Source of the DNA: Chloroflexota bacterium
GTDB taxonomy: Bacteria > Chloroflexota > Anaerolineae > UBA1429
Assembly (NCBI GenBank): GCA_021372475.1
Contig: JAJFUJ010000127.1
Coordinates: forward strand, 24,654 to 88,653
DNA: 64,000 nucleotides
Direction: 5' to 3'
The position numbers and the translations under genes were made by a program. The notes beneath the pieces were generated by a model. It was not told the DNA's origin, made no database searches, and saw only the letters and a list, made by a program, of their open reading frames with translations. Shown piece after piece: positions 9,691 to 58,017 of the stretch (positions are counted from its first letter, which is position 1; each line of letters starts with the position of its first letter).

Positions 9691-10808
9691 GAGTAATGGT
9701 AACAGGCGGCGGCACGGGCGGCCATGTGTACCCGGCTCTGGCGGTAGTGGATGAACTAAGCAGCAACGGCATCTGGCGCACGAGCCGCAACGAGATTGCC
9801 TGGGTGGGCGTAGCCGGCAACATCGAGCAGGAAATCATCCAACGCGCCGGCCTGCGCTTTTATGCTGTAAGCTCGGGCGCGCTGCGCGGCGCCAACCCGC
9901 TGCAGGCGCTCAGCAGCATCGCGCACCTCGTGCAGGGGCGCCGGCAAGCATTCGGGTTCATACGCGAGTTCAAACCCGAGGTAGTGTTAGCGACAGGCGG
10001 TTATGTTTCTGCGCCGCTGGTGCTGGCTGCCCACAAGTCGAGGGTGCCGGTACTAATCCTGCTGCCCGATATCGAGCCGGGCATGGCCGTGCGTTATCTC
10101 GCGCGCATGGCCCAAAAGGTTACGGTATCCTTCCCCGAGGTGGCACGCTATTTCCAGCCCGGGAAGGTGCTGGTGACGGGATATCCGGTGCGCCCGGTGC
10201 TCTTTAGCCTGACCAAGTATCAGGCGCGTGCGGAGCTGCAGCTTCATCCGGAGGGAACGGTGCTGTTGGTGCTGGGGGGCAGCCGCGGAGCGCGTTCAAT
10301 CAATAACGCCGTCAGCGCCATGCTGCCTAAAATCCTGCCGTTAGCTGATATTGTGCATCTGTGCGGCCGCGAGGACTATCCGGCGCTGCAAGAACAGCGC
10401 AAGGCGTTACCGCACACGCAACAAGCGCGTTATCAGCTTTATCCTTATCTGCACGACCAGATGCCCGCCGCCCTGGCTGCGGCCGATCTGGTTGTGGCGC
10501 GCGCCGGCGCGGCTACGCTGGCCGAGTTCCCGGCCGTGGGGCTCCCGGCCATCCTGGTGCCCTACCCCTTCGCGGGCAGGCATCAGCAGATGAACGCTGA
10601 CTTTATGGCGTCGCATGGTGCCGGCCTGGTGCTGGCGGACGACGCCCTGGCTGAGCATCTTGAACCGACGGTGTTGGATCTGCTGCAGGATGCATCTCGC
10701 CTGCGAGAGATGAGCCGGGCAGCCCGAGCCATGGCGATGCCCCATGCTGCCCATGCGGTTGCAGAAGCCTTGCAAAACCTGGCCAAAGGAGGCAAAGATG
10801 CCCGCTGA
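9687..10808 (+). CDS. murG: UDP-N-acetylglucosamine--N-acetylmuramyl-(pentapeptide) pyrophosphoryl-undecaprenol GlcNAc transferase MurG.
   Basis: MRVMVTGGGTGGHVYPALAV N-terminal G-loop and a GT-B fold with the C-terminal GAATLAE motif. Confidence 0.9.
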   Translation: MRVMVTGGGTGGHVYPALAVVDELSSNGIWRTSRNEIAWVGVAGNIEQEIIQRAGLRFYAVSSGALRGANPLQALSSIAHLVQGRRQAFGFIREFKPEVVLATGGYVSAPLVLAAHKSRVPVLILLPDIEPGMAVRYLARMAQKVTVSFPEVARYFQPGKVLVTGYPVRPVLFSLTKYQARAELQLHPEGTVLLVLGGSRGARSINNAVSAMLPKILPLADIVHLCGREDYPALQEQRKALPHTQQARYQLYPYLHDQMPAALAAADLVVARAGAATLAEFPAVGLPAILVPYPFAGRHQQMNADFMASHGAGLVLADDALAEHLEPTVLDLLQDASRLREMSRAARAMAMPHAAHAVAEALQNLAKGGKDAR

Positions 10809-11406
10809 TGCGGCTGTTGTACCTGTAAGCGAATACGTGTTGATCGCGGCTGCTCTAGCGATCTTTGGCATTATCGGCTTTCGCCGCGGGGTAAACCGGG
10901 AACTCGTTACCTTTGTCGCTGTGCTGCTTGCACTAGCCATTACCGGCCTATTCACCGATGCGCTGGTGCCTGTCGTCAACAAGCTGCACCGCATTATGCG
11001 CTTTGCCCTGAGCGGCGGCCTGAGCACCGGGGACTCGGCAGCCTTGGATACGGTTGGGCAGATTCCCGATTTGGTGAGCACGCCGGCCAGCAAAGCCGTG
11101 CTTGAACTCGTGCTCTTTGCTATCCCGGTGTCCATATCGTACCTGATTGGGCTGCGTTTCAGGGGAGCAGTAAATATAGGGCAGAAATTACTAGGTTCGC
11201 TGCTGGGCGGCGTGACAGGATTCTTTATTGCCCAGCGCTTTGGCCCAATTTTGTTCCCGGCCGGGCAAACCAACCTGGTGCTGGCGACCGGATCGACCAA
11301 TTCGCTGCTGCAAGACACACAGGTTGTTGCGGTGCTTGTGGTCGTCGCTGTGGTAATACTGATTGCTTTCGGGTTATACAGCGCACGACGCGTCGTCAAA
11401 CGCTAA
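10798..11406 (+). CDS. CvpA-family (colicin V production-like) membrane protein.
   Basis: Small polytopic membrane protein, 4-5 hydrophobic segments. ATG at 10798 preceded by AAGGAGG. Inserted in the dcw cluster between murG and murC. Confidence 0.4.
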   Translation: MPADAAVVPVSEYVLIAAALAIFGIIGFRRGVNRELVTFVAVLLALAITGLFTDALVPVVNKLHRIMRFALSGGLSTGDSAALDTVGQIPDLVSTPASKAVLELVLFAIPVSISYLIGLRFRGAVNIGQKLLGSLLGGVTGFFIAQRFGPILFPAGQTNLVLATGSTNSLLQDTQVVAVLVVVAVVILIAFGLYSARRVVKR

Positions 11407-11420
11407 GTCGGAGGAAAAGA

Positions 11421-11960
11421 TTGGTACCAGTCGAGGTCGTATTCGGGATTATGGTGCTGATTTTCACCTTGATTGGCTTTGCGCGCGGATTCCTAAAGGA
11501 GCTCGGCGTGACGGCAATGGCCATCTGGACGCTCTTTGTGTTGAGCCTGCTGGGACCGCTGGTAGAGCGGATGCTGGGAGGCGGAGAACTCTCGGCGAGC
11601 CGGGCGCAGTGGCTGTGCGCCGGATACCTGCTGATCATCGTCGGCGGCGCGCTCATCTCGTATCACGGCGAAACGCTGGCCTTCGGTGGAGTGCCCCCGC
11701 GCGGGATGACGGGCGCCGTCCTGGGAACGATGATGGGGTTGGTGAATGGGTATTTGATTGCGGGGTCGCTGTGGTATTATATGGCGCGTTTTAACTATCC
11801 CATCCGCGCGCTGGGATTCACTGCGGAGGGGCTATCGCCGGCGGCTATGGCGATACAGCCATATTTGCCGCCCGCGCTGCTCGGGCAGCCGGTACTACTC
11901 GGGCAGAGCCTGCTCTTGTATCTATCGATCTTACTCATTGTAGCGCGTGTGATCCGTTAA
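11421..11960 (+). CDS. CvpA-family membrane protein; second paralog, tandem to the first.
   Basis: MVPVEVVFGIMVLIFTLIGFARGFLKELG is a typical CvpA N-terminus. TTG start preceded by GGAGGAAAAG. Confidence 0.4.
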   Translation: MVPVEVVFGIMVLIFTLIGFARGFLKELGVTAMAIWTLFVLSLLGPLVERMLGGGELSASRAQWLCAGYLLIIVGGALISYHGETLAFGGVPPRGMTGAVLGTMMGLVNGYLIAGSLWYYMARFNYPIRALGFTAEGLSPAAMAIQPYLPPALLGQPVLLGQSLLLYLSILLIVARVIR

Positions 11961-19359: not shown

Positions 19360-20487
19360 ATGTACCTGCAGCCTGAAAGACGCGTCCACCGCAGGCCATT
19401 TTGGCCGTGGCTGATCTGTATTCTGGTCGGCGTTATCGCCGGCTATACCCTTTGGACCAACCAGAAGCAAATCTATGAGTGGGTTGGCATCCAATTACCG
19501 ACACCCACGCCTACCGAGTTCCCGGCGACCGAGTACCTGGCGCGGGGTGACGCGGCCATGCTACAAGGCCACAACGATGAAGCGCTGACCGCCTATCAGC
19601 GCGCTGCCACGCTCGATCCCTCGCTGAGTGCGGCCTATGCCCGTTGGGCGCGCATCCTGATCATGCGGGGACAGACGGAGGAAGCTGTCCGCATTGCGCG
19701 CCGGGCGGTGGAGATAAACGCGGAATCGGCAGAGAACCAGGCTGCGCTCGGATACGCACAGGATTGGGCGGCCAAGCCTCTCGACGCGCTGGCCTCCTGC
19801 CAAAAAGCTGCCAACCTGGATGCTGCATATGCCCCGGCATACGCCTGCCTGGCGGAAGCTTATGCGGATACCGGCCAGAACCAAGACGCGTTGGTGAATG
19901 CGCAAAAAGCTGTGGAACTTGCTCCCAGCGACCCCTTTGTTCAACGCAGCTTGGCCTATGTTTATGAGACGGCTGGTAAATACACTGAAGCTATTACCGA
20001 ATACAATAAAGCCGTCCAGCTCAATCCCAAAATCGCTTTCTTTTATCTTGACCTAGCGCGGAACTATCGCATCCAGCAGGATACAGATAATACGATCGCC
20101 CAGCTCGACCTGGCAACCAAAGCCGACCCAAACGATCCGCAAGCCTATGACCAGTTAGGCTGGCTGTATTACAGCACTGGCGCCTACGACCAGGCTGTAA
20201 CGCTGCTGAAAAAAGCAATCGAGCTCAATCCGGATTTTGCCTCTGCCCACGGACATTATGGCATTGTGCTCTTTAGCCGGCGTTTTTATGAAGAAGCACA
20301 GACCGAACTTGAGCGTGCCTATGAACTGGGAGCGCACAACGAAGAATATGTACTCATCCTGGCTTTGAGCTATGAGTATAATGATCAATGCGAGCAAGCA
20401 GTACCATGGTTCGAAAAGAGCCTGGAAATCAACCCAGAATCGACGATGGCGCAGCAGGGCTTGCAAATATGTAAGGAAGAAGAATAG
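19360..20487 (+). CDS. Tetratricopeptide repeat (TPR) protein with an N-terminal transmembrane anchor.
   Basis: N-terminal hydrophobic segment (WPWLICILVGVIAGY), then at least 8 TPR-like 34-residue repeats (AYxxLGxxY / AxxxYxKAxELNP patterns). In-frame ATG at 19360; a TTG at 19342 is the ORF-track start. Confidence 0.75.
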   Translation: MYLQPERRVHRRPFWPWLICILVGVIAGYTLWTNQKQIYEWVGIQLPTPTPTEFPATEYLARGDAAMLQGHNDEALTAYQRAATLDPSLSAAYARWARILIMRGQTEEAVRIARRAVEINAESAENQAALGYAQDWAAKPLDALASCQKAANLDAAYAPAYACLAEAYADTGQNQDALVNAQKAVELAPSDPFVQRSLAYVYETAGKYTEAITEYNKAVQLNPKIAFFYLDLARNYRIQQDTDNTIAQLDLATKADPNDPQAYDQLGWLYYSTGAYDQAVTLLKKAIELNPDFASAHGHYGIVLFSRRFYEEAQTELERAYELGAHNEEYVLILALSYEYNDQCEQAVPWFEKSLEINPESTMAQQGLQICKEEE

Positions 20488-20694
20488 CCCATTGAGCAGC
20501 AAGAAATCCCAAAAGAGGAACCAAACTATCCTGATTATCATCAGTGTTCTGGTAGCTGCCAGCATGATCTGTGGTTTCTTGTCGATGATCCGCGGTTACT
20601 GATCCCCCTCCGTATACCGCCCAGGGCTCGTATGGATAGCATTATCTGGGATATTTTTGCAATAATAAAGGCAAAGTTGTAATATAAGCACTAA

Positions 20695-20768
<74 letters not shown>

Positions 20769-20771
20769 CAG

Positions 20772-20797
20772 AGCCCTCGCTATGGGGGCTTTTTTAT
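20772..20797 (+). terminator. Possible intrinsic terminator after the tRNA: AGCCC...GGGCT hairpin followed by TTTTTT.
   Basis: 5-bp GC-rich stem plus a T6 tract directly 3' of the tRNA. Confidence 0.35.
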
Positions 20798-20823
20798 TAA
20801 GGGTCAGTTAGGAGCCTGGGCAA

Positions 20824-21411
20824 ATGGGAACCGTCGATCGAGCATCTTATTTCTGTTCTGGCTGCGGCGCCATACGCCAGCAAGGAGCCAGACGCTGTTC
20901 CTCATGTGGGCGAGTTTTCGATGATGAATCCAACGCATCTGAGACAATTTATGCGTTGACACATCCACAGGTTAAAGCGCCGTACCGTAAACAAGGGCCA
21001 GTCAGCAAATTCTTTGAAAATATCTTTTCCTTTCACTCCGTTATCACTATTATTGCGATCGTTATGCTTGTTGTTGCTGCTCGCGCCTTGCTGCCATATG
21101 TTTTCGGTATCAAGGCTGAGGCGTCTGTGACAAAGCTTGAAGCCCTCAATTGCAAGGCGGATTGCCAATACCTGGTGGACTATCAATTCACCGATATATC
21201 GGGCAATGTGCGCACAGGCCAATACCACTGGAGTTACAAGGATTTTTATTTCTACCCGCCCAAGGAAGGTCAGCCAACCGTTATCAAGTACATACCCTAC
21301 CTCACGTTTATGCCAGCGGTAGCCATCGATGCCTGGTTTCCATGGGGGATGTTCGTGATGGCGGGATTGGCCATCCTAGCGCTCGTGGCAGTGAAGAAAA
21401 ACTGGATATAA
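20824..21411 (+). CDS. Hypothetical membrane protein: N-terminal CxxC...CxxC zinc ribbon, TM helix, beta-rich domain, C-terminal TM helix (DUF3592-like topology).
   Basis: CSGCGAIRQQGARRCSSCG zinc-ribbon motif; two hydrophobic segments. GC content is visibly lower than in the flanking genes. Confidence 0.5.
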   Translation: MGTVDRASYFCSGCGAIRQQGARRCSSCGRVFDDESNASETIYALTHPQVKAPYRKQGPVSKFFENIFSFHSVITIIAIVMLVVAARALLPYVFGIKAEASVTKLEALNCKADCQYLVDYQFTDISGNVRTGQYHWSYKDFYFYPPKEGQPTVIKYIPYLTFMPAVAIDAWFPWGMFVMAGLAILALVAVKKNWI

Positions 21412-21439
21412 CGTCTAGCAGAACGTTCAATAGTGCAGG

Positions 21440-21473
21440 AGCAGGGCTTGCTGACAAGCCCTGCTCTTTATTA
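21440..21473. terminator. Bidirectional intrinsic terminator between convergent genes.
   Basis: Perfect 11-bp stem AGCAGGGCTTG/CAAGCCCTGCT with loop CTGA, T-rich on the + side and A-rich upstream. It lies between the ends of the 20824..21411 (+) gene and trkA (-). Confidence 0.5.
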
Positions 21474-22145
21474 TCTGGGGCGGGCCAAGAGTTGATTGAA
21501 CTGGGCTATCTCCGTAGAGTGCACCAGCGCGAGCACCTCGTCAGCCTCGATCAAGACCGTATCGCCTTTGGGGAGCAGCAGTTGGCCTTTGCGTATGATT
21601 GCCACCAGCACGCAGTTATCCGGCAGGACCAAGGCCTTGATAGCCTGGTTTATCGCCTGCGAAGCAGGATGCACCTTCTCCTGAACGAGGGAATACTGGC
21701 CGCGCATCAGCTTCATCAGGGTCATCATATCGCCCAGCGACATCTCCTCGGCAATCAGGTGAGCCATCAAGTCCGCCTGGCTGAGAGCCACATCCACCCC
21801 CATAGTCGGGTTATAAAGCCAGGCATTTTTCGGATTATTCACTCGGCCGATCACGCGTGGGACGCCGAACTCGAAGCGCGCCAAGCTGGAAGCCACGAGG
21901 TTGGTCTCATCCGCGCCCGTCACTGCAGCCACCACATTCGCCTGGCGGATACCTGCCGATTCGAGCACTTCTGGGTCTGTGCCATTGCCGGGAACAACCA
22001 CTTCTGCAGGCAAGTCCTTCAGCAGCGTGTCCACATGCTCCCGACGCAGTTCGATTACCTTGACGCGGTAACCTTCCGCCAATAAAAGCGACGCCAGGTG
22101 TGAGCCTACTTTACCGCCGCCAACAATCAAAACAAACATAGTCAT
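21471..22145 (-). CDS. trkA: TrkA-family K+ transport NAD-binding regulatory subunit (TrkA-N plus TrkA-C).
   Basis: MTMFVLIVGGGKVGSHLA Rossmann GxGxxG and a C-terminal TrkA-C region. Confidence 0.8.
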   Translation of the reverse strand: MTMFVLIVGGGKVGSHLASLLLAEGYRVKVIELRREHVDTLLKDLPAEVVVPGNGTDPEVLESAGIRQANVVAAVTGADETNLVASSLARFEFGVPRVIGRVNNPKNAWLYNPTMGVDVALSQADLMAHLIAEEMSLGDMMTLMKLMRGQYSLVQEKVHPASQAINQAIKALVLPDNCVLVAIIRKGQLLLPKGDTVLIEADEVLALVHSTEIAQFNQLLARPR

Positions 22146-22155
22146 GTTGTCCTCC

Positions 22156-22806
22156 TTAGCTCAGGCCCAGCATAGCTTTGAGCTTATCCGCTGACGCTGC
22201 CTGCACTACCAGGTGCAGGATATCCCCAGCCATGAACACTGTGCCGGTGGTGGGCAAGAAGGTGCGCCCGCCGCGGCTTACCGCGACAACCGTTATTTCA
22301 GTCGGGACGTTTAGATCTTTTACGGCCCGCCCCTCGAGCTGAGGAGTTACCTCGATCTCGATGACATCCACCTCTCCGGTGCCTAATGAGTAGACGGTAT
22401 TCAGCGGCGAATAATTGAGCACATCGGCGATGCGGTTGACGCCCCAGGTGACCGGAGCGATGGTATTGAGCCCCAGGCGCTTGTATATTTCAGCCTTGAG
22501 TGGATCGTATAAACGGGCGACAACGCGCGGCACGCGGTATACCATGCTGGCGACGCGCGCCGTCACGACGTTGACCTCATCGCTGGGAGTCAAAGCCGCC
22601 AGGGCATCGGCATGCTCGATGCCAGCTTTAACCAGAACATCGCGGTCGTAACCGACTCCTACGATCTTTTGACCTCTAAAACTGGCGCCAAGCCGCTCAA
22701 AGGCGGTCGGGTCCGTATCGATGATATGCACCGTTTGCCCTTGCATATTCAGAATATGTGCCAGGCCAGAGCCCATTCGGCCGCAGCCGACAATAATGGT
22801 TAACAC
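22156..22806 (-). CDS. trkA: TrkA-family NAD-binding subunit; second tandem paralog.
   Basis: LTIIVGCGRMGSGLA Rossmann motif. Likely GTG start at 22806 preceded by GAGGAGG. The ORF-track start at 22866 would overlap the upstream ATPase. Confidence 0.75.
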   Translation of the reverse strand: MLTIIVGCGRMGSGLAHILNMQGQTVHIIDTDPTAFERLGASFRGQKIVGVGYDRDVLVKAGIEHADALAALTPSDEVNVVTARVASMVYRVPRVVARLYDPLKAEIYKRLGLNTIAPVTWGVNRIADVLNYSPLNTVYSLGTGEVDVIEIEVTPQLEGRAVKDLNVPTEITVVAVSRGGRTFLPTTGTVFMAGDILHLVVQAASADKLKAMLGLS

Positions 22807-22810
22807 TATA

Positions 22811-25642
22811 TCACCTCCTCGCCAAACGACGGTCGCGCTTACGCACAAAGAACTTGCGAATTTCATCTGTTACCAAGAGGGCGGGAATTAACGCAATCAG
22901 GAAAGGCACATTCTCCGGAGGAATTGGCCCCGTGTTGAAGATAGTTTGCAGAAATGGCACATAACTGAGCAGAATTAGAAGAATAATCTCAGCGGCGATG
23001 CCGAGCCATAACAGCCTGTTGTTGAACAATGGATACTTGAACACAGAGATACGCTCCGTGCGCTGGGCAAACAGGTTACCAATTTGTGTGGCCACTGTGG
23101 CTGCCAAGGTCATCGTTGTTGCAATCGTATACACTTGGCCTGAATCAGGCAATCCCAGGATTTGTCCGGTGTAGCCGTGCGTCCAGTAATGGAAGAAAAA
23201 GGCCAGCATAGCCAGAGTGCCCTGCACAGTACCCAGGATTAGGTAAGCGCGCACGAGCAGTGCCCCAGAGATGACATGCTCTTTGGGATTACGCGGTGGT
23301 CTTTCCATCAAGCCCGGCTCGGGCCGCTCGACGCCAAGTGCCAGTGCTGGCAGGATATCAGTGCCAAGATCTACTGAAAGGACCTGCATGACCGTCATAG
23401 CCAAGGGGATGCGGGTGCCGCTCAAGACATACAGAATAAAGGGATAAGCTTCGGGTGTATTGCTGGTGAAAATATAGGTACAGAATTTCTTGATATTAGC
23501 ATACACGGCGCGCCCTTCTTCGACGGCGTTGACGATGGAAGCAAAGTTGTCGTCTGTCAACACCATTGTCGCGGCTTCCTTGGCCACATCCGTGCCAGTA
23601 ATGCCCATCGCCACGCCGATATCGGCCTTCTTGAGGGCCGGGGCATCGTTCACGCCGTCGCCTGTTACGGCCACCACATGGCCTAATTCCTGTAAGTTGG
23701 CGACGACGCGCAGCTTGTGCTCGGGGGCAACACGCGCAAAAATAACCTCGCCCTTGAGTGCCTGCTTGAGCGCGTCATCGGACATACCTTCGAGCTCAAC
23801 GCCGGTGATGATGCGCGCCTGACTGCCAGAGACAATGTTGATACGTTGGGCGATGCTGGATGCCGTCAGGCCATAGTCGCCAGTGATCATGATAATGCGG
23901 ATGCCGGCATGATGGCAGCGTTCGACGGCGTTGGCCACCTCGGGACGCGGCGGGTCCATCATCGCTTCCAGGCCGATAAAGGTCAATTCGGACTCGACGT
24001 TCTCGGCATTCCAATAACCAAGAGGCTGCCGTTGGCTGACCTCGTCAGTCAGGTTGCGGGCGGCTACAGCCAGCACGCGCAGCCCGGTACGGGCATATTC
24101 ATCGTTGGCAGATAAAATTGCTTTGCGCCGCGTTTCATCCAGCGGTTGACGCTGCCCCTGCCACAGGATATATGAGCACAAGTCGAGCGTCTCCCGGGGA
24201 GCGCCCTTAACATAGGCCATCAGGCTAGCCCCCTGCATATGCAGCGTCGTCATGCGCTTGCGGCGCGAATCGAAAGGAATCTCGCGCATACGGGGCTGTG
24301 CCTGCAGTTCGGCGCCCACATCAATCCCCGCTTTACGGGCGGCCACGATAAGTGCGGCCTCTGTCGGGTCGCCCAGGATATTCCAACGGTCAACCTCTGC
24401 GGTTGGGGCGTTCAGCCGAGCGTTGTTGCATAAGCTCGCTGCCAAGAGGAGCTTGTGCACATCGCTTTGAGGCGAGATACTCAGGCTTTCTGCACCTTCC
24501 TGGATCTTGCCTTCAGGCGCATAACCAGCGCCGGTGACGGCGAGGTTGTGCCCGCCAACCCACAAGTTACGGACAGTCATCTCGTTTTGTGTCAGTGTGC
24601 CGGTTTTATCGGTACAAATAACGGTGGTACAACCCAAGGTCTCTACAGATGAGAGCTTCTTCACCAAGGCGTTGCGTTTCGCCATGCGTTGTACACCCAT
24701 TGCCAGCGACATCGTAACCGTCGGGAGCAAACCCTCAGGTATAAAAGCCACTGCCATACCCATCATAAAAATAAAGCCCTCAACCAATGTCACCTTGGCG
24801 ACAAGAAGTGCAAGCACAAAGAAAAGCACGCCTATTCCAATGGCAATCAACGAAACGATGCGCGTCAACCGTTGAATTTCGACTTGGAGCGGGCTGAGAT
24901 CCTCCTTCAACTGCTGCGTTAATCCGGCGATTTTGCCAAATTCGCTGTGCATACCGGTAGCAAAGACCACCGCTTTTCCGGTGCCAGAAGCCACATTAGT
25001 GCCAGCAAAAACAATATTTGGAATCTCGTGCCTGGCCAGGTCTGTGCGCAGCACCGCTTCGCTGGTTTTGCGCACGGGATGCGACTCGCCAGTTAGTGTA
25101 GACTGGTCGGTGCAAAGCTCGGATTCAAGCACCAGGCGCGCATCGGCCGAGATGCGGTCGCCTTCGCTGAGCATAATCACGTCGCCAGGGACGAGATCCT
25201 CGGCAGGAATGCGCTGCTCCCCGCCATCGCGCAAAACGCGCGCCTGCGCGGGTATCATTCTCTGCAACGCTTCGGCAGCCTTATCGGCGCGGAACTCCTG
25301 CCAGAAGCTGAACACTCCGTTGATGATGACGACCGCCCAGATAGCTATGGCTAACTGCGGCATTCCGCCAATAATTGCCGCAACGCCGCCGATCCAAAGC
25401 ATGATAGCCATCATGCTGGTAAATTGAGCCAAGAGCTTGTAAATGAGAGGCTTGCGCTTGACTTCCTTAATTGTGTTAGAACCATATTCTGTCAGCAGTT
25501 GAGGAATCTGTTTGTTGTGCAGCCCCTCGGGGCAGGTTTCCAATGCCTCATATACCGCCGATACCGGCAGCGCATGAATGCTGCCAGACAATTCCGCCAG
25601 CTTGTTCTCAACTGATGAACTCACCCAACTAACTCCTTGCAC
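22811..25642 (-). CDS. P-type cation-transporting ATPase, P2-type (Ca2+/Mg2+-like, E1-E2).
   Basis: 943 aa. Phosphorylation motif ICTDKTGTLTQNEMTV; TGES-type actuator region (LTGESHPV); hinge GDGVNDAPALKKADIG; about 10 TM helices. Confidence 0.9.
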   Translation of the reverse strand: MQGVSWVSSSVENKLAELSGSIHALPVSAVYEALETCPEGLHNKQIPQLLTEYGSNTIKEVKRKPLIYKLLAQFTSMMAIMLWIGGVAAIIGGMPQLAIAIWAVVIINGVFSFWQEFRADKAAEALQRMIPAQARVLRDGGEQRIPAEDLVPGDVIMLSEGDRISADARLVLESELCTDQSTLTGESHPVRKTSEAVLRTDLARHEIPNIVFAGTNVASGTGKAVVFATGMHSEFGKIAGLTQQLKEDLSPLQVEIQRLTRIVSLIAIGIGVLFFVLALLVAKVTLVEGFIFMMGMAVAFIPEGLLPTVTMSLAMGVQRMAKRNALVKKLSSVETLGCTTVICTDKTGTLTQNEMTVRNLWVGGHNLAVTGAGYAPEGKIQEGAESLSISPQSDVHKLLLAASLCNNARLNAPTAEVDRWNILGDPTEAALIVAARKAGIDVGAELQAQPRMREIPFDSRRKRMTTLHMQGASLMAYVKGAPRETLDLCSYILWQGQRQPLDETRRKAILSANDEYARTGLRVLAVAARNLTDEVSQRQPLGYWNAENVESELTFIGLEAMMDPPRPEVANAVERCHHAGIRIIMITGDYGLTASSIAQRINIVSGSQARIITGVELEGMSDDALKQALKGEVIFARVAPEHKLRVVANLQELGHVVAVTGDGVNDAPALKKADIGVAMGITGTDVAKEAATMVLTDDNFASIVNAVEEGRAVYANIKKFCTYIFTSNTPEAYPFILYVLSGTRIPLAMTVMQVLSVDLGTDILPALALGVERPEPGLMERPPRNPKEHVISGALLVRAYLILGTVQGTLAMLAFFFHYWTHGYTGQILGLPDSGQVYTIATTMTLAATVATQIGNLFAQRTERISVFKYPLFNNRLLWLGIAAEIILLILLSYVPFLQTIFNTGPIPPENVPFLIALIPALLVTDEIRKFFVRKRDRRLARR

Positions 25643-25795
25643 GTCGGCAGGCCGGTCATGTTGACCTTCTTGACTCCAGCCACCAAACTAATTCTATCAT
25701 TGACCTGTTGTATGCCAAGCGCACTGCTCAATCCCGGCAATTTGCAAGGCAACAAATAGGCTAGTATAGGCTCATCAATGTGCAATACCAAAAAC

Positions 25796-26788
25796 TCAAT
25801 AACCCAAGAGATCACTGGACTGAGCAAGTTCCTGCAGAGCTTGGCGCCTGCGACGGTATTCGATAATCGGGCGGTCGCCCTGGATGAGTTTTTCATCCAT
25901 ATGCAGACTGCTTTTGAGCGGTCGCTGGGTAATAACCACTCTGCGGTCCTGAGCGAGTATTTTGCGGTCGCCGATTTTTGCCCCAGCAAAAGTAAATAGC
26001 TCTCGTAGGATTGGCACACGCACTACACGCTGGTAAAAACGCACATACATCAGCGTATTAGCTTCATCGATTGGTGCAAAGACAACAACAATACGCAGAT
26101 TGTCAGAGATATGGTTCATCCACACGTTCGGCATACGCAGATGCAGGAACGGTCCGCGTGTCGGATGCACTTCATCAGGCCTTAAGGGCAGCGTACCATC
26201 ATCAATCCTGTTCTGCACCCACACTCGCAGCTCGTTATCAACCCATTCTGTCATTGGGCCGTCCACTAGAGTATAGTTACCGCGACCAATCGTGTTGTAA
26301 TGAACGAATGGAAGGTGCATGACATCGAGTTGGTTTTCAATAGCCCGCGAGTAGTGCGCTGCCCAGTGGCTGCGCAATGTATTGTAATGAAAGCCGAACA
26401 GTAGGTCTCTAAAAAATGGCACCTCCGGCAAATCATCCCTGGGCTCGCCCCACCAGAGCCATATGAACCCGCCGACCTCGCGCAGTGGATAAGAGGCTAC
26501 CTTGAATTGGCTTGGAACCAACGCAGCCCTGCCGTTAGCCGGGATGAGGACACACCGCCCCGATGTATCATACTCCAGGCCGTGGAAAGGACAGCGGATG
26601 GTATCTTGACACACCTTACCAATGTTCAGTGCCGCACCTCGATGTGCACACAGGTCGATCATACAAACCAGCTCGCCTCCGCTGGTACGCCAGAGCACGA
26701 GCCTCTCGCCCATTCGCGTCACACCCAATGGTTTGCCGCTTTTTACTTCACTGGATTCGAGAATGCCGTACCATTGATTACGGATCAT
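25796..26788 (-). CDS. Rieske [2Fe-2S] non-heme iron oxygenase family protein.
   Basis: Rieske motif CAHRGAAL...(16 residues)...CPFHG, followed by a catalytic domain with His/Asp ligand candidates. 330 aa. Confidence 0.75.
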   Translation of the reverse strand: MIRNQWYGILESSEVKSGKPLGVTRMGERLVLWRTSGGELVCMIDLCAHRGAALNIGKVCQDTIRCPFHGLEYDTSGRCVLIPANGRAALVPSQFKVASYPLREVGGFIWLWWGEPRDDLPEVPFFRDLLFGFHYNTLRSHWAAHYSRAIENQLDVMHLPFVHYNTIGRGNYTLVDGPMTEWVDNELRVWVQNRIDDGTLPLRPDEVHPTRGPFLHLRMPNVWMNHISDNLRIVVVFAPIDEANTLMYVRFYQRVVRVPILRELFTFAGAKIGDRKILAQDRRVVITQRPLKSSLHMDEKLIQGDRPIIEYRRRRQALQELAQSSDLLGY

Positions 26789-26905
26789 TTTCCCTTCTCC
26801 CTAATCCACTAAACAGAGACCGCGGTAAAGAATCCAGCTAACATCCCGCATAGCTACACTCTCACCCAGGCTGGCGCCGTTAGGGAACGCGGTTGCAGGG
26901 GATAA

Positions 26906-27397
26906 TCACCGCGTCGCGATTTGCTTTGGCTCTTCCGCCAGCAAAAGGTCAATCATCGCCAGCAAGGCATCGTCAGGCAGGATGTCGGCCATCGACTCAC
27001 CATGATGCTCATAACGCAGATAGCCGCGCTGGTCGATGAGCATCAGGGCAGGCATGCGTCCGGCCTTGAACCAGTTGACTTGCTGGCCATAGGCATCGGC
27101 CACCGCGTGCAGCGAATCCGGCAACCCGATAAACGGCATCGCATTGCGCTGCCAAAAGTCAACAAAATCCTGGCGGGAATCGGGGCCGCTGATAGCAACC
27201 ACTATGTCGCGGGAAGCGAATTCTTGCCTATCCTGGCGCAACTGCGCCATGTGCCGTCGGCAGAAAGGTCAAGCGAAACCACGGTTCAATACCAGCACTA
27301 CGATGTGCCCACGTTGAGCGGAGAGGGCAAAAGGCTGGCCATTTATGTCGCTAAGCGTAAAATCAGGAGCTAGTTCAGTAGGCGGTATAAGCGGCAT
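26906..27397 (-). CDS. Candidate selenoprotein: Prx-like/TlpA-like thioredoxin-fold protein (163 aa) with an in-frame TGA (minus-strand codon at 27271-27269) in place of the first Cys of the redox motif (RGFA-U-PFC).
   Basis: The ORF track only shows the 114-aa C-terminal part (26906..27250). Reading upstream through the TGA stays in frame to an ATG at 27397 preceded by TAAGGAGG. The combined N-terminus MPLIPPTELAPDFTLSDINGQPFALSAQRGHIVVLVLNRGFA[TGA]PFCRRHMAQL... matches the AhpC/TSA-redoxin consensus (PAPDFTLxDxxGxxxxLSxxRGKxVVLxFYRGxWCPxCxxxL). A GC hairpin, GGCGCAGUUGCGCC, lies 21-34 nt 3' of the UGA (+ coordinates 27235-27248). Confidence 0.45.
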
Positions 27398-28530: not shown

Positions 28531-29286
28531 ATGAAACTACAGGGCAAATGCGCGCTCGTGACGGGCGCGGGGATCGGGATCGGCCGTGAGGTGGCGCTGG
28601 AGCTGGCGCGCGAGGGCGCCGATGTGGCGTTGAGCTATCATGCCAGTTCCAGCGGGGCAACGAGCGCCGTGGCAGAGATAAACGCCATGGGACGGCGGGC
28701 GCTGGCCGTACGCGCCGATGTCAGCCAGGTGAGCGAGTGCAGAGCGCTGGTGAGCGAAGCGGCCGCCTTCCTGGGCGGGCTCGATATCCTGGTCAATAAT
28801 GCCGGGGTTACCATCGTCAAGGATTTTCTGAGCATCACTGAGGAAGACTTTGATTACCTCTATCATTTGAATATCCGCGGCTATTACTTTTGCGCCCAGA
28901 GCGCAGCGGCTTGTATGTGCGAACGGGGCGGTGGCGTCATCATCAATATGGCATCGATTCATTCTTTTATGTCCAACTACCGCACCTCGCTGTATGACGG
29001 CACCAAGGGCGCCATCCTCAACACCACGCGCTCGCTGGCCCTCGAACTCGCCAAGGACCACATCCGCGTGGTGGGCGTAGCGCCCGGTGTGATCGAGGTG
29101 CCGCGCTATTTCGATGATCCGGCTTATTCAAGCGCCGAATCGGGCAAGCGCGTGCCCTGGGGCCGCGTCGGCCTGCCCATTGATATCGCCAAAACATGCG
29201 TCTTTCTGGCCTCGGCCGACGCAGATTTCATCACCGGCCAGACCATTATCGTTGACGGCGGCACCACTACGCGCATGTCACTCTGA
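28531..29286 (+). CDS. Short-chain dehydrogenase/reductase (SDR) family oxidoreductase.
   Basis: TGAGIGIGREVALELAREGADV Rossmann motif, NNAG motif, YxxxK catalytic pair. 251 aa. Confidence 0.85.
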   Translation: MKLQGKCALVTGAGIGIGREVALELAREGADVALSYHASSSGATSAVAEINAMGRRALAVRADVSQVSECRALVSEAAAFLGGLDILVNNAGVTIVKDFLSITEEDFDYLYHLNIRGYYFCAQSAAACMCERGGGVIINMASIHSFMSNYRTSLYDGTKGAILNTTRSLALELAKDHIRVVGVAPGVIEVPRYFDDPAYSSAESGKRVPWGRVGLPIDIAKTCVFLASADADFITGQTIIVDGGTTTRMSL

Positions 29287-29297
29287 CCATCCTCATA

Positions 29298-29535
29298 GAG
29301 GGTGTTAAAGTATCCAATTGGAGATATCTTTGTGCCCGAAAAGACGGGTTGCGAACTCGCATAGCATTTCCGCACAAGCAGGGATACAATTGAGTCTTGC
29401 TCTTATTCTTGTTACTATATGATATATTCCATTATCCCTCAGATTGATACTGGATTCTGGCCTGCACCGGAATGACGCTTCCTGTTTCCCGGCGGGCGAG
29501 TATAAGGGCAGAATTTCTTTTTCAACACCCCCTCC
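29298..29535 (+). repeat. Copy 1 of a ~240-bp intergenic repeat with imperfect terminal inverted repeats (GAGGGTGTTAAAG ... CTTTTTCAACACCCCCTC). MITE-like element or structured RNA.
   Basis: Aligned by eye with 40564..40802. Long conserved blocks: GAGTCTTGCT-TTATTCTTGTTA, ATATGATATATT, ATACTGGATTC-GGCCTGC-CCGGAATGACGCTTCCTGTTTCCC, GTATAAGG, CTTTTTCAACACCC. Confidence 0.5.
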
Positions 29536-29545
29536 GCATACTCGT

Positions 29546-29574
29546 TTGACCGACCACTATCACAGAGTTATACT
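29546..29574 (+). promoter_or_regulatory. Strong sigma70-like promoter for the sugar operon: -35 TTGACC, 17-nt spacer, -10 TATACT.
   Basis: TTGACC at 29546-51 and TATACT at 29569-74, about 10 bp after the repeat end. RBS AGGGAG and ATG at 29606. Confidence 0.5.
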
Positions 29575-40497: not shown

Positions 40498-40563
40498 AGC
40501 ACGGCCCTCCCCCTCGATTTAGCGTCATTGTAAACCGCCAATGCTGATTGGTCAAGTCATTAA

Positions 40564-40802
40564 GAGGGTGTTGAAAAAGTATCCAACTAGAGACACTGTA
40601 GTGTCTGAAAGACAGGGTTGCAAACTCACAGATCAGTCCCCGCGTAAGCAGGAACCCATCCGAGTCTTGCTTTTATTCTTGTTATGATATGATATATTAC
40701 ACTATATATCAGATCAATACTGGATTCCGGCCTGCGCCGGAATGACGCTTCCTGTTTCCCAGTGGGCAAGTATAAGGAAAGAACCTCTTTTTCAACACCC
40801 TC
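40564..40802 (+). repeat. Copy 2 of the ~240-bp repeat, with near-perfect 14-16-bp terminal inverted repeats (GAGGGTGTTGAAAAAG ... CTTTTTCAACACCCTC).
   Basis: Same orientation and same internal conserved blocks as 29298..29535. Located directly upstream of the pstS promoter, about 70 bp from the divergent DUF4446 gene start. Confidence 0.5.
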
Positions 40803-47401: not shown

Positions 47402-48599
47402 GCCGGATGCGCTCCATCAAACGGTTCACAAATGCGATATTATGTAATGTTGCGTAACGGTCGTACAGGCCGTCGCCGATTTTGAACAGGTGGTGCAGCC
47501 AGGCACGCGAATAGCTGCGGCAGCACGGGCACCTACAGCCTGCCTCCAGCGGACGATTGTCGCGCCGGTGGATATCGTCGCCGATGTACAGGTGGCTGTA
47601 CCACTGCATCTGGCGCGCCAGCGGGATACCCTCCTCAGCCTGCCAGATGAGCAGTCGGCCATGGCGCGCGTCGCGAGTGGGCATCGCGCTATCGAAGAGG
47701 GTATAACCCAGCTCGGCACACTCAAGGATATGGCGGGGATGGCCAATCCCGAGCGCGTGCAAGGGATACTCTGCCGGCACGAGCTCGCGCACATAAGCAA
47801 TGATATCGTGCAGCAGCTCGCCCTGGCTATCCAGTGGCCAACCGCCCAAGCCGTAACCGTCAAAGCCAATCGCCAGCAGCTCCTCGGCGCAGATACGGCG
47901 CAACTCATACTCCCCGCCCCCCTGGATGACGGCCAGCAGCAGTGGCCGCCCGCCGCTAGATTTCCGCGCGCTCATCAGCCGTTCGAACTCGCGCTTGCCG
48001 CGTTTTGCCCAGGCAATGGTGCGCTGCACAGCGGTGCGTTGTTCAACCAGCGGCGCATCGGCGTGGGTACACTCATCCAGGCAGATAACAGCATCAGCGC
48101 CGAAAGCCACCTGGTGCTCCACCACCTTTTCAGGCGTCAGGCGCAGCGGCCTGGCCCCCGCCTCGCCCTTGAACACTAATCCCTGGTCGGTAATGGAACC
48201 GAGGGACGGGTTCTGGTGGATGAGCGAATAAGCCTGAAATCCGCCTGAATCAGTAACGATGGGGCGCTGCCAGGCGAACATGGCGTGCAGCCCACCGGCT
48301 GCTTTGAGCGTCCCTGGGCCTGGGCGCTGCAGCAGATGGAAGAGGCTCATCACCAGCGCCGGTACGCCCAGCTCCTGCAGGGCGACGCCGTCGACAGCGC
48401 GCACGACGCCACGCGTGGCATCCGGCAGAAAAGCCGGCAGACTTAGATTGCCATGCGGCGTGCGGAGCTCGTTTATGCCAGCCATACTACTTCCGTCGAT
48501 GAAATGTATGTCATTATAAGGTAGAGTAACGCCTTGCTCAACCTGAATGTGCCGACCATACTGCGCCTCCAACATACTATATGTGATTACCTTTTCCAT
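47382..48599 (-). CDS. tgt: tRNA-guanine transglycosylase family protein (Tgt-like; queuine tRNA-ribosyltransferase or a divergent paralog).
   Basis: TDSGGFQAYSL catalytic motif; PLHALGIGHPRHILECAELGYTLFDSAMPTRDARHGRL (second catalytic Asp in FDSA); zinc site CRCPCC...H. Its 3' end overlaps the Rmt-like gene by 20 nt. Confidence 0.7.
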   Translation of the reverse strand: MEKVITYSMLEAQYGRHIQVEQGVTLPYNDIHFIDGSSMAGINELRTPHGNLSLPAFLPDATRGVVRAVDGVALQELGVPALVMSLFHLLQRPGPGTLKAAGGLHAMFAWQRPIVTDSGGFQAYSLIHQNPSLGSITDQGLVFKGEAGARPLRLTPEKVVEHQVAFGADAVICLDECTHADAPLVEQRTAVQRTIAWAKRGKREFERLMSARKSSGGRPLLLAVIQGGGEYELRRICAEELLAIGFDGYGLGGWPLDSQGELLHDIIAYVRELVPAEYPLHALGIGHPRHILECAELGYTLFDSAMPTRDARHGRLLIWQAEEGIPLARQMQWYSHLYIGDDIHRRDNRPLEAGCRCPCCRSYSRAWLHHLFKIGDGLYDRYATLHNIAFVNRLMERIRHEQPTG

Positions 48600-48621
48600 A
48601 TCCAGCCCCTTGAAGAGTCAG

Positions 48622-48633
48622 TACTATATAGTA
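48622..48633. promoter_or_regulatory. Perfect 12-bp palindrome TACTATATAGTA in the tgt/marR divergent intergenic region; candidate MarR-type operator.
   Basis: Read directly; centred about 30 bp upstream of the MarR ATG (48657). Confidence 0.3.
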
Positions 48634-48656
48634 TCATTGGCATCAAGTAGGATACG

Positions 48657-49105
48657 ATGCAACGCAAGACGCAGGGTAGCTACCTCATAGCGCAGATCGA
48701 ACAGATTCAGGGGCGGGTCTTTAACCGACTGCTGGAGGAGTACGGCATCGGGGCATTTAACGGCGCTCAGGGGCGCATCCTGTATGTGCTTTGGCAGCAA
48801 GATAACCTGCCGATTAAAGAGATCGCACGCCCCACCAGCCTGGCCAAGACGACACTCACCAGCATGCTCGAACGCATGGAACAGAGCGGCAACATCCGCC
48901 GCAGCGCCAAGTGACTGTCAACCTCAGTGAGCAGGCGCAAGCCTTGCGCACTGATTATGATGCTGTGTCGCTCCGGATGAGCGAGTTATTCTACGAGGGC
49001 TTTACGGACAAAGAAATCAATGTACTGGAAGCGATGCTAATCCGTATCCTGGCCAATCTACGAAACACAGAACAGGCAAATAAACCAGAAAAACCAAAGG
49101 AGTAA
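48657..49105 (+). pseudogene. MarR-family transcriptional regulator interrupted by a -1 frameshift at about 48911-48914 (two ORFs of 85 and 64 aa that together make a normal 149-aa MarR), or a sequencing error.
   Basis: The N-terminal ORF carries the winged-HTH (...LPIKEIARPTSLAKTTLTSMLERMEQSGNIRRSAK*). The C-terminal ORF (TVNLSEQAQAL...EAMLIRILANL) continues the MarR wing/dimerisation helix in the adjacent frame. TGA at 48912-14; the next frame begins at GTG 48911. Confidence 0.5.
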
Positions 49106-49106
49106 C

Positions 49107-49691
49107 ATGACGAAAGTCGCGATGCCGATCTCGAACCATTTTTGCCCGCAGACTCTCTTTCTATATGGTACCTATCGTGAGGATGGCACGCCCAATTTCG
49201 GGCTGTTCTGCTGGATTAGTTACTTCTGGGAAGATGAGCTGGGGGTGATGGCCTGTCTTGGCGGTCAGAAACTAACCAAAGACCGCATCCGCCAGACAGG
49301 AGAGTTCTCGGCCAACCTGGTGATAGAAGCGTTGCTTCCCCTGGCGGATGCTTGCGGCAATATCCCGGGCACAGATCCCGCCAAGCGCGCCATTCAACCA
49401 GATACCATACCTGGCCAGGTTCTTCATGTCCCTATTCTAAACGAAAGCCCCTGGAGCTTTGAACTACAAGTAATACGTGAAATACCTCTGCAGGGCAGCG
49501 ATATCTTTCTCTGCAAGATCCGCAACATCCTGGCGGATGAACGGCTCGCGGATGAGACCAAAACGATTCAGGAACGTCTGCAATCGATTGCTCCCATCTC
49601 AACCACATGCCAAACCTATTTTTCTTTCACGGGAAAGTCGCTCGGGATGTGGGGAGAGCCACAACAGGCTTATCGCAAGCAGGCTGGGTGA
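49107..49691 (+). CDS. Flavin reductase-like (FMN-binding split-barrel) family protein.
   Basis: ...LFLYGTYREDGTPNFGLFCW... resembles the flavin reductase/flavoredoxin domain N-terminal pattern. 194 aa. Confidence 0.6.
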   Translation: MTKVAMPISNHFCPQTLFLYGTYREDGTPNFGLFCWISYFWEDELGVMACLGGQKLTKDRIRQTGEFSANLVIEALLPLADACGNIPGTDPAKRAIQPDTIPGQVLHVPILNESPWSFELQVIREIPLQGSDIFLCKIRNILADERLADETKTIQERLQSIAPISTTCQTYFSFTGKSLGMWGEPQQAYRKQAG

Positions 49692-56413: not shown

Positions 56414-57392
56414 ACAAATCGCGCATCCAAGCGGAATGATAGCAAACGGCCTGGAGCTGAGCATCGTAGAGCCTGCCGCCGATACGGTGGTAACTATCGG
56501 CACTTTCGACGGCGTGCATCTGGGGCACCAGCACCTCATCAGGCAGGTCATCGCGCGCGCCCGCGAAATCGGCTGCCTGGCGGCCGCCTTAACCTTCATA
56601 CCCCATCCACGCACCGTGCTGCATCCCGAATTGCCCCTGGCATATCTCTCCACCTCGCCTGAACGCGTCCAGCGGCTAAAAGAACAGGGTTTTGACCTGG
56701 TGGTGGCAACAATGTTCACTCCAGAGTTGGCAGCTACTTCCGCCGAGGAGTTTATGACCGCACTGGTGCGCCAGGTAAGAATGCGTGAGCTGTGGGTCGG
56801 GCATGATTTCAGGCTCGGGCGTGGGCGCGAAGGCGATTTCAAAAGCCTGCGTTCGCTCGGGTGCAAGCTCGGCTATACGGTGCATCTGGTAGAGCCGCTG
56901 CTTTATGACGGGCATCCTATCAACTCGACGCGCATCCGCAAGCTTATCGCCGCCGGTGAGATGGAGCAAGCCGCGGAGTTGCTCGGACGGCGCTACAGCC
57001 TCTCAGGGCAGGTCATCGCCGGCCGGCACGTGGGGCGCTCCCTCGGTATCCGCACGGCCAATATTGCCTGCGATCCGGAGCGGGTCATCCCGGCTAACGG
57101 CGTCTACGCTGCCTGGGCAGAGGTCGCCGGCAGCCGTTATATGGCCGCCGTGAACATCGGCATCCGCCCGAGTTTCGGCCTCACCGAGCGGCTGCTCGAA
57201 GTGCATCTGTTGGATTTCGAGAATAATCTATATAATACCGAACTGAGCATCGAATTTGTGCATTATCTGCGGCCAGAGCTGCGCTTTGCTGAGGTTTCCG
57301 CGCTGGTCGCCCAGATACAGCACGATATCGCCGAAACACGCACTATCCTGCGTGCGGATACCTACCATGAGGTGGATGACAACCATGGCTAA
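56406..57392 (+). CDS. ribF: Bifunctional riboflavin kinase/FMN adenylyltransferase RibF.
   Basis: N-terminal FAD synthetase (TIGTFDGVHLGHQHLI) and C-terminal riboflavin kinase (GRHVGRSLGIRTANI... PANGVYA...). Confidence 0.9.
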   Translation: MSEQIAHPSGMIANGLELSIVEPAADTVVTIGTFDGVHLGHQHLIRQVIARAREIGCLAAALTFIPHPRTVLHPELPLAYLSTSPERVQRLKEQGFDLVVATMFTPELAATSAEEFMTALVRQVRMRELWVGHDFRLGRGREGDFKSLRSLGCKLGYTVHLVEPLLYDGHPINSTRIRKLIAAGEMEQAAELLGRRYSLSGQVIAGRHVGRSLGIRTANIACDPERVIPANGVYAAWAEVAGSRYMAAVNIGIRPSFGLTERLLEVHLLDFENNLYNTELSIEFVHYLRPELRFAEVSALVAQIQHDIAETRTILRADTYHEVDDNHG

Positions 57393-58017
57393 TATGATTA
57401 CGCTCGCACGTTTTCCAGTGCTGTTCCTTGCCATCATCCTGATGTATCTGCCGGGAGCGACGCCCAAGCTCATTGCAGCGCCAGTGGTTATCGTGTTGAT
57501 CTTGATGGACACTGTCGATGGCTGGGTAGCGCGAGCGCGTAAGGAAACCTCGCTGCTGGGCAGCGTGCTCGATATCATGGCCGACCGCTCCGTCGAAGTG
57601 GCGCTATGGATTTGCTTCGCCCACCTGCGCCTGGTTCCAGTAGTCATTCCGCTCATTTTTGCGGTGCGCGGCGTCATCGTCGATTCGTTGCGCAGCTTTT
57701 CAGTGGGCAAAGGGATGGCTCCCTTTGAGGGAATGCGTTCGCGCGCCGGACGTTGGTTGGTAGGCAGCCCATGGATGCGCAGCACCTACGGCATCAGTAA
57801 AGCCTTCTCGTTTACGGGATTGGCGCTGACTAACGCCTTGTACACCATGGCAAAGACAGGAGGCGCATCAACCAGTGCGGCAGCTACGAGCCACACTATT
57901 TTTACCATAACCAGTTGGGTAGCACTGGCGCTGTGCTTGCTGCGCGGTATCCCTGTCGTGGTGGAAGCTTTTATCTGGCTGCGCGAATACGATCATAAAC
58001 CGGACCTAGAGCCGTAA
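57385..58017 (+). CDS. CDP-alcohol phosphatidyltransferase family protein (PgsA-like).
   Basis: Signature D-G-x2-A-R...G-x3-D-x3-D (LMDTVDGWVARARKETSLLGSVLDIMADR); multi-TM. ATG at 57385 (MANMITLARF...); the ORF track starts at 57256 inside ribF. Confidence 0.7.
   Translation: MANMITLARFPVLFLAIILMYLPGATPKLIAAPVVIVLILMDTVDGWVARARKETSLLGSVLDIMADRSVEVALWICFAHLRLVPVVIPLIFAVRGVIVDSLRSFSVGKGMAPFEGMRSRAGRWLVGSPWMRSTYGISKAFSFTGLALTNALYTMAKTGGASTSAAATSHTIFTITSWVALALCLLRGIPVVVEAFIWLREYDHKPDLEP

Follow-up and report, generated by a model that had tools for sequence, protein, structure and literature searches.

We analyzed a stretch of 64,000 nucleotides from an uncultured Anaerolineae (Chloroflexi) metagenome-assembled genome (MAG; GenBank assembly GCA_021372475.1, contig JAJFUJ010000127.1, positions 24,654 to 88,653), hereafter called the window, in which an intergenic segment of about 240 bp occurs twice. 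Copy 1 lies between a short-chain dehydrogenase gene, whose stop codon occupies 29284-29286, and a sugar operon that encodes an L-fucose-isomerase-like protein, a class II aldolase and an FGGY kinase. Copy 2, 11 kb away, has a DUF4446 gene (minus strand) on one side and pstS-pstC-pstA (plus strand) on the other, and occupies the space between their divergent promoters. We consider it likely that this repeat is a MITE, short for miniature inverted-repeat transposable element, that is a non-autonomous, non-coding DNA transposon, of which the window holds two old, decaying copies beside promoters that were there before them.

Results

Two copies of one element end in inverted repeats

For comparison we used loci of relatives in three assemblies: GCA_040961035.1 (L006), GCA_054641895.1 (L007 and L010/L011) and GCA_054606755.1 (L008/L009 and L012/L013). 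The two copies, their conserved central blocks and their terminal inverted repeats (TIRs) are as follows.

29298-29534, plus strand: element copy 1, 237 bp, delimited by alignment to copy 2 and by the empty site in L010/L011
40564-40802, plus strand: element copy 2, 239 bp, delimited by the empty sites in L007 and L008 and by the orthologous copy in L006
29298-29310, plus strand: left TIR of copy 1, GAGGGTGTT and AAAG, separated by a 3-nt deletion relative to copy 2
29517-29534, minus strand: right TIR of copy 1, reverse complement GAGGG(GG)TGTTGAAAAAG, with a 2-nt insertion
40564-40579, plus strand: left TIR of copy 2, GAGGGTGTTGAAAAAG
40787-40802, minus strand: right TIR of copy 2, matching the left TIR perfectly in inverted orientation
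29392-29428, plus strand: conserved A+T-rich central block of copy 1, GAGTCTTGCTcTTATTCTTGTTAnnATATGATATATT
40662-40698, plus strand: conserved A+T-rich central block of copy 2

Aligned over their full length, the copies match at 188 positions, with 47 mismatches and 4 gap columns, which amounts to 80% identity. A gap-free block of 161 nt common to both is the longest direct repeat of the window, the runner-up being 35 nt long, and neither nhmmer nor blastn found a copy in the 64 kb beyond these two. The flanks of the two copies are unrelated, and the similarity ends at the TIRs. In copy 2 the TIRs are perfect over 16 bp (GAGGGTGTTGAAAAAG), and in copy 1 they carry small indels. When up to three mismatches are allowed, the TIR pattern matches the window five times against 0.19 matches expected, a count that none of 100 shuffled sequences reached. 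Apart from those of the element and of an insert in L012/L013 that we describe below, the window and the relatives’ loci showed no additional TIRs.

Identity between the copies is unevenly distributed: it is 67% in the 5’ third and 86% in the remainder (Fisher p = 0.003). The A+T-rich central block of copy 1 includes an extended -10-like motif, TGATATATT. A first-pass annotation, made from the letters of the window, had described two related segments of about 240 bp at these places, with ends that are inverted repeats of each other and with a more divergent internal 5’ third. All of this is borne out by the alignment, in which every block that had been listed as shared is present. Copy 1 had been drawn from 29298 to 29535; its start is correct, and the TIR places its end one base earlier, at 29534.

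Relatives carry empty sites flanked by the same promoters

Three promoters adjoin the two copies.

29546-29574, plus strand: sigma70-type promoter of the sugar operon, TTGACC-17-TATACT, outside the element and kept in L010, L011 and L012
40808-40835, plus strand: pstS promoter, TTGACG-16-TAAAAT, outside the element and kept in L006, L007 and L008
40527-40555, minus strand: promoter of the DUF4446 gene, TTGACC-17-TACAAT, of which GGTCAAGT and CATTGTAAAC are kept in L007 and L008

In a promoter scan, the sugar operon and pstS promoters were recovered as they had been described before. Copy 1 ends 11 bp and copy 2 ends 5 bp before the respective -35 hexamer, and the same scan found no conserved promoter or terminator inside either copy.

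The closest relative, L006, encodes a PstS that is 89% identical to that of the window, and it carries the element upstream of pstS. Its contig (9,268 bp) starts in the middle of the element, at GATATATT; assemblers tend to end contigs in multi-copy sequence, so this break is a weak hint that the element is repeated there, and it may be a coincidence. In L007 and L008/L009, whose PstS proteins are ~76% identical to that of the window, the gene order is the same and both divergent promoters are present, and the ~240-bp element is missing. When these loci are aligned to the window, both edges of the gap fall at the TIRs, placing the insert of the window and of L006 exactly between the promoters. 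The -35 hexamers of DUF4446 and pstS stand only ~15 bp apart in the element-free relatives (L007:5800-5960; L008:5890-5990), and the insertion at pstS has moved these back-to-back divergent promoters to a distance of ~250 bp. A second empty site is found at the sugar locus of L010/L011, where the dehydrogenase stop codon is followed by 18 nt and then by the TTGACC-17-TATACT promoter.

Because the same promoters are present in the genomes with empty sites, they pre-existed at both loci and were not brought in by the element, which we read as an insertion bounded by its TIRs. The first-pass annotation had offered the idea of an element that carries promoters, which these genomes contradict, and the idea of one that is recruited next to promoters, which we do not maintain, as the events behind it number two or three and fall in intergenic stretches that are very short.

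Upon comparison of the sugar locus with L012, we noticed a different insert of ~154 bp in the same dehydrogenase/isomerase intergenic region (L012:3451-3604, equivalent to L013:509-662). Its termini, GAGGGTGTGGAACAGG and CCTTTTCCACCCTC, are related to the TIR of the window. The similarity of its interior to copy 1 is borderline, with 7 of 300 shuffles reaching the same score, and its interior shows no similarity to copy 2. The insert lies 1 nt from the dehydrogenase stop codon, and copy 1 in the window lies 11 nt from it. By these termini, inserts with GAGGGTGTKGAA-type ends form a family in these bacteria. The ~154-bp insert also holds a strong internal hairpin, CCCTCTCCCAAAGGGAGAGGG. Taken together, the empty sites at both loci with gaps that match the TIR ends, and the second, different insert with related TIRs in another relative, bear out the label ‘MITE-like’ that the repeat had been given.

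The internal palindrome is a CGTC-1-type REP

Each copy contains a palindrome, which reads as a hairpin on the minus strand and has the layout of a repetitive extragenic palindrome (REP).

29450-29476, minus strand: CGTC-1-type REP hairpin of copy 1, decayed, with 2 stem substitutions
40720-40746, minus strand: CGTC-1-type REP hairpin of copy 2, intact, G-CGTC-ATTCCGGC-GCAG-GCCGGAAT-CCA-G

The CGTC-1 class (Di Nocera et al. 2013; PMC3733652) was defined by an unpaired CGTC (often TGTC) tag at one end, a stem of 8 bp that opens with A-T, T-A pairs, a loop of 4 nt and a short CCA tail that is also unpaired, and it includes the dRS3 repeats of Neisseria and RPE-6 of Rickettsia (PMC3733652). In the window, an unpaired CGTC tag comes first, then an 8-bp stem with AT at its start, GCAG as the 4-nt loop, and CCA as the tail. 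Both copies read GCGTC-ATTCC... on the minus strand, and in both the stem is followed by CCA. The substitutions in the hairpin of copy 1 are consistent with decay. These two hairpins, both inside the element, are the only REPs in the window. Each copy holds a single REP and thus lacks the pair of inverted REPs less than ~130 bp apart that makes a REPIN.

The same palindrome occurs far outside the element. The pattern TTCYGGCCTGCRCCGGAATG is found at 34 loci in IMG/VR viral contigs, where fewer than one match would be expected by chance (calculated for a ~19-mer); these loci have unrelated flanks and a common core, CTGGATTCCGGCCTGCGCCGGAATGAC. Of 36 viral occurrences, 19 have CGTC as the tag, 12 have TGTC, and 34 carry the CCA tail. 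Three of the IMG/VR contigs contain REPIN-like pairs of inverted REPs ~96-108 nt apart (L018:54-169, L030:2291-2418 and L046:956-1083), and many of the other viral matches lie directly before or after genes. Closer to the window, a solo REP lies at L012:5995-6021 (equivalent to L013:3053-3079), within the 3’ end of the aldolase open reading frame (ORF), where it lengthens the called protein. The equivalent aldolase site is free of the REP in the window (about position 31930) and in L010. This solo insertion therefore marks the REP as a repeat unit that is independent in the lineage. The palindrome had been presented as a conserved internal feature of the element; it is indeed present in both copies, but it belongs to a widespread type of REP, the CGTC type, and is not specific to the element.

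Divergence of the element is close to the neutral rate

Between the window and L006, 423 of 500 fourfold degenerate sites in pstS, pstC and pstA are identical (84.6%). The part of the element that is present in L006 shows ~85% identity in one block and 93% in another, together with indels of 18 nt and 8 nt, the 8-nt indel lying at the right flank of the element. The pstS promoter and 5’ leader that adjoin the element are ~97% identical between the same two genomes. Judged against these benchmarks, the element drifts at about the neutral rate, next to a promoter and leader that are constrained. Such divergence speaks against a conserved role as an RNA or in regulation, at least in the 3’ half that can be compared. 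Directly 3’ of the REP, at L006:56-98, lies an unrelated stretch that is 18 nt longer and contains a mini-hairpin, CACGCGCAGCGTG; this stretch may be a replacement or a further small insertion.

These data bear on the possibility that a former MITE has been co-opted as a cis-regulatory module. Once co-opted, the element might uncouple the back-to-back pstS and DUF4446 promoters as a spacer or insulator, or might supply a protein-binding or UP-like A+T block, or its REP hairpin might serve as a 3’ stabilizer or terminator of the upstream dehydrogenase transcript. Such roles would fit the shared orientation of the two copies and their position 5-11 bp upstream of a -35 box, the better-kept 3’ two-thirds (86% against 67% identity), the retention of the pstS copy in two species, and the description of REPs as mostly downstream of genes and plausibly RNA elements (PMC3733652). 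However, the divergence of the ortholog equals the neutral benchmark, and the 18-nt replacement directly adjoins the hairpin. In the element-free relatives these operons are driven by the same promoters, the hairpin and TIRs of copy 1 are mutated, and the promoter scan gave no conserved internal promoter or terminator. The shared orientation, moreover, has a probability of 0.5 for two copies out of two. We therefore regard co-option as unlikely.

Target sites, further copies and a partner transposase

Possible target-site duplications (TSDs) lie beside the copies (no strand is assigned).

29292-29297: possible left TSD of copy 1, CTCATA
29535-29540: possible right TSD of copy 1, CGCATA
40558-40563: possible left TSD of copy 2, CATTAA

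Several observations weigh against a transposon origin, and the degeneracy of the target sites, whose partial matches otherwise speak for one, is the first of these. CTCATA and CGCATA agree at five of six positions, which has a chance of ~0.005 for one fixed 6-mer pair, with the boundaries here picked post hoc. At copy 2, CATTAA of the window can be compared with CATTGG of the right flank in L006, a weak cross-species match of four in six at a place where the window is 8 nt shorter. When the pstS site is composed of the left flank of the window and the right flank of L006, removal of a 6-bp duplication leaves a spacer of 15 nt, which is the spacer of L008. These flanks suggest a TSD of 6 bp, by a match that is degenerate and was found post hoc. 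The ~154-bp insert in L012 shows no TSD.

A second point is the small number of copies: those visible are the two in the window and the one ortholog in L006. The exact 20-mer CCGGAATGACGCTTCCTGTT, a poor probe whose block is not conserved in L006, gave five chance matches in 185,579 species genomes, with similarity limited to 21-28 nt. GTATAAGGNNAGAANNTCTTTTTC, which is kept in all three known copies, gave four chance matches in a scan of JGI metagenomes, and scans of IMG/VR with the right-end pattern and with the TIR-pair pattern gave none. Third, no insertion sequence (IS) or transposase with the TIRs of the element was found in the window, in the relatives’ loci or in IMG/VR. Fourth, the three lineages are about equidistant, so that phylogeny alone cannot separate insertion from precise loss; here the TIR-exact boundaries and the paralogy of the two copies favor insertion. 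Finally, the 3’ two-thirds are significantly better kept between the paralogs than the 5’ third, a difference not expected if the history were purely neutral.

Other searches covered the same ground. The TIR 16-mer alone matched IMG/VR at least 120 times, and the matches listed all lie in phage coding sequence (REGVEKAIKGADI). An apparent TIR pair in L093 was considered as an IS and rejected; it encloses a terminase-like ORF. Copy 2 had no blastn match among plasmids, E. coli genomes or phages, a Pfam scan of 20 ORFs of the window gave no transposase, and literature searches for the TIR strings returned nothing relevant. By its sequence the element appears unrelated to any named family that we found, and would be an otherwise ordinary MITE, previously undescribed.

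With no transposase found and no clean TSD, an origin other than transposition has to be weighed: the segment could be a cassette exchanged at GAGGGTG...CACCCTC sites by site-specific or homologous recombination, or a segmental duplication of a regulatory region. The two different inserts with similar termini in one intergenic region, one in the window and one in L012, would also fit such an exchange. However, the termini are inverted and not direct, a better fit to the ends that a transposase recognizes than to the core sites of a recombinase, and the distance from the stop codon to the insert differs, being 11 nt in the window and 1 nt in L012. The unrelated flanks of the two window copies, with similarity that stops at the TIRs, speak against any duplication of flanking DNA, and copy 1 does show the degenerate 6-bp duplication. 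Both variants are, in our judgment, improbable.

RNA structure and coding capacity

The only match of the window to Rfam at the gathering threshold is a tRNA gene (20695-20768), and under relaxed settings no match better than E = 0.4 overlapped either copy. Consensus folds of the two copies yield one compensatory pair on each strand, nothing meaningful as covariation. Copy 2 folds far better than its shuffles (z = -6.3 on the plus strand and -7.9 on the minus strand), and copy 1 folds like its shuffles on either strand (z about -1.2). The strong fold of copy 2 is the signature of a perfect TIR together with palindromes in the DNA. The element is not an operon leader, as both copies sit upstream of the promoters of the operons.

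A structured RNA had been proposed as the other reading of the repeat. In the form of a non-coding small RNA (sRNA) or a leader, made from one strand and with the inverted ends as its closing helix, this reading draws on the fold of copy 2, the compensatory pairs and the conserved -10-like TGATATATT, but we hold it to be highly unlikely, since the fold is equally good on both strands, as DNA symmetry would have it, and is missing from copy 1, Rfam offers no matching family even at E <= 10, no terminator was found, the pstS copy sits between divergent promoters, and the indels of the ortholog fall within the predicted helices.

The element is small and has no coding capacity, with short, non-conserved ORFs only. 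The sole ORF common to both copies, a small peptide of 25 aa (MTLPVS...), keeps its frame through the L006 indel. We rejected it as a gene: it has no ribosome-binding site, it differs by 4 non-synonymous changes against 1 synonymous change, and its ATG is part of the REP motif. A protein search with the longest ORF (76 aa, across copy 2), which was also aimed at mis-called ORFs in other copies, returned no match.

Other features of the window

The tRNA gene at 20695-20768 lies on the plus strand, has the anticodon loop CAC and is read as Val. After it, positions 20000-27000 of the window have a lower G+C content (0.50-0.56 against ~0.60) and code for a P-type ATPase, a TrkA-like protein, a Rieske oxygenase and two ORFs without a Pfam match; this stretch may be an island adjoining the tRNA gene. 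The window is otherwise tightly packed, with three further long intergenic gaps of 500-610 bp at 10808-11421, 48599-49107 and 57392-58006. No convincing inverted-repeat element of the TIR type was found in its other long intergenic regions.

Discussion

The sequence comparisons lead us to the following scheme for how the MITE came to lie at the two loci. An element of ~240 bp, bounded by 16-bp TIRs of the form (G)GAGGGTGTKGAAAAAG, would have been mobilized in trans by a transposase that recognizes these ends, a partner that our searches did not find. It would have inserted twice in this Anaerolineae/Chloroflexi lineage, each time into the few non-essential bases that separate an upstream gene or promoter from the -35 box of a downstream operon. 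The paralogs are 80% identical and neutral sites between the species are 85% identical, which would date the insertions to about the time of the split from the L006 lineage or a little earlier. The survivors would be those insertions that left the promoters intact, and such selective survival would account for the position of both copies, 5-11 bp upstream of the -35 hexamer. Later decay at a roughly neutral rate would have produced the TIR indels and the mutated hairpin of copy 1 and the indels of the ortholog. The copies are probably immobile now, and we infer that they have no present function. The master copy would already have held the CGTC-1-type REP, itself an independent small repeat of many bacteria.

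For annotation, this scheme would mark the repeat as selfish DNA beside promoters, as opposed to a riboswitch, a promoter cassette or an sRNA, and would treat the pstSCA and sugar operon promoters as ancestral. It would add a MITE family for the Anaerolineae, which are poorly studied and mostly uncultured. It would also place a CGTC-1 REP in the Chloroflexi. CGTC repeats were reported in five phyla, the Chloroflexi not among them, and are reported to lack a dedicated transposase (PMC3733652). A REP nested in a TIR-bounded element is a small datum on how CGTC REPs spread. Specialists in mobile elements will find nothing surprising here. One may go further and suppose that MITEs are the vehicles by which CGTC REPs reach genomes and phyla new to them, or that REPs seed the interiors of MITEs, and that in addition the 3’ two-thirds of the element were co-opted to separate or insulate promoters; we find this combination quite improbable.

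Prokaryotic MITEs are exemplified by the Correia elements of Neisseria, the enterobacterial ERIC sequences and cyanobacterial Nezha (reviewed in PMC10969869). The element resembles such MITEs in its size of ~240 bp, its lack of coding capacity, its perfect or near-perfect TIRs, its intergenic position by promoters, its presence or absence among relatives and the decay of its old copies. It differs from them in that two copies are seen, that a TSD is only suggested and that its host is a MAG of an uncultured member of the Anaerolineae (Chloroflexi). Similar ends, and a possible source of the TIRs, are seen in two IS5-family insertion sequences whose inverted repeats have been reported (PMC10569121). 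(G)GAGGGTGTTGAAAAAG agrees with the left inverted repeat of ISKpn26, GGAAGGTGCGAACAAG, in 13 of 17 columns, and the TIR agrees with that of IS903B, GGCTTTGTTGAATAAA, at 10 of 16 positions, both compared by eye and offered as leads only. The suggested TSD of 6 bp is unlike the 4-bp TSD of ISKpn26 and the 9-bp TSD of IS903B.

The palindrome shows the full CGTC-1 layout of tag, stem, loop and tail (PMC3733652), and its sole difference from a Neisseria REP, ATTCCCGCGCAGGCGGGAATC (bioRxiv 10.1101/2021.07.10.451892), is one compensatory swap of C:G to G:C in the stem. Unlike the REPs of that class, it is a single unit placed off-centre in a larger TIR element, neither free-standing nor part of a head-to-head dimer, and the window is not REP-rich. 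From REPIN/RAYT systems the element differs in holding one REP, in having 16-bp TIRs and not REPs at its ends, and in that no RAYT gene was seen. Like these systems, and like the neisserial intergenic mosaic elements (NIMEs), it ties a REP-type hairpin to other repeated intergenic DNA.

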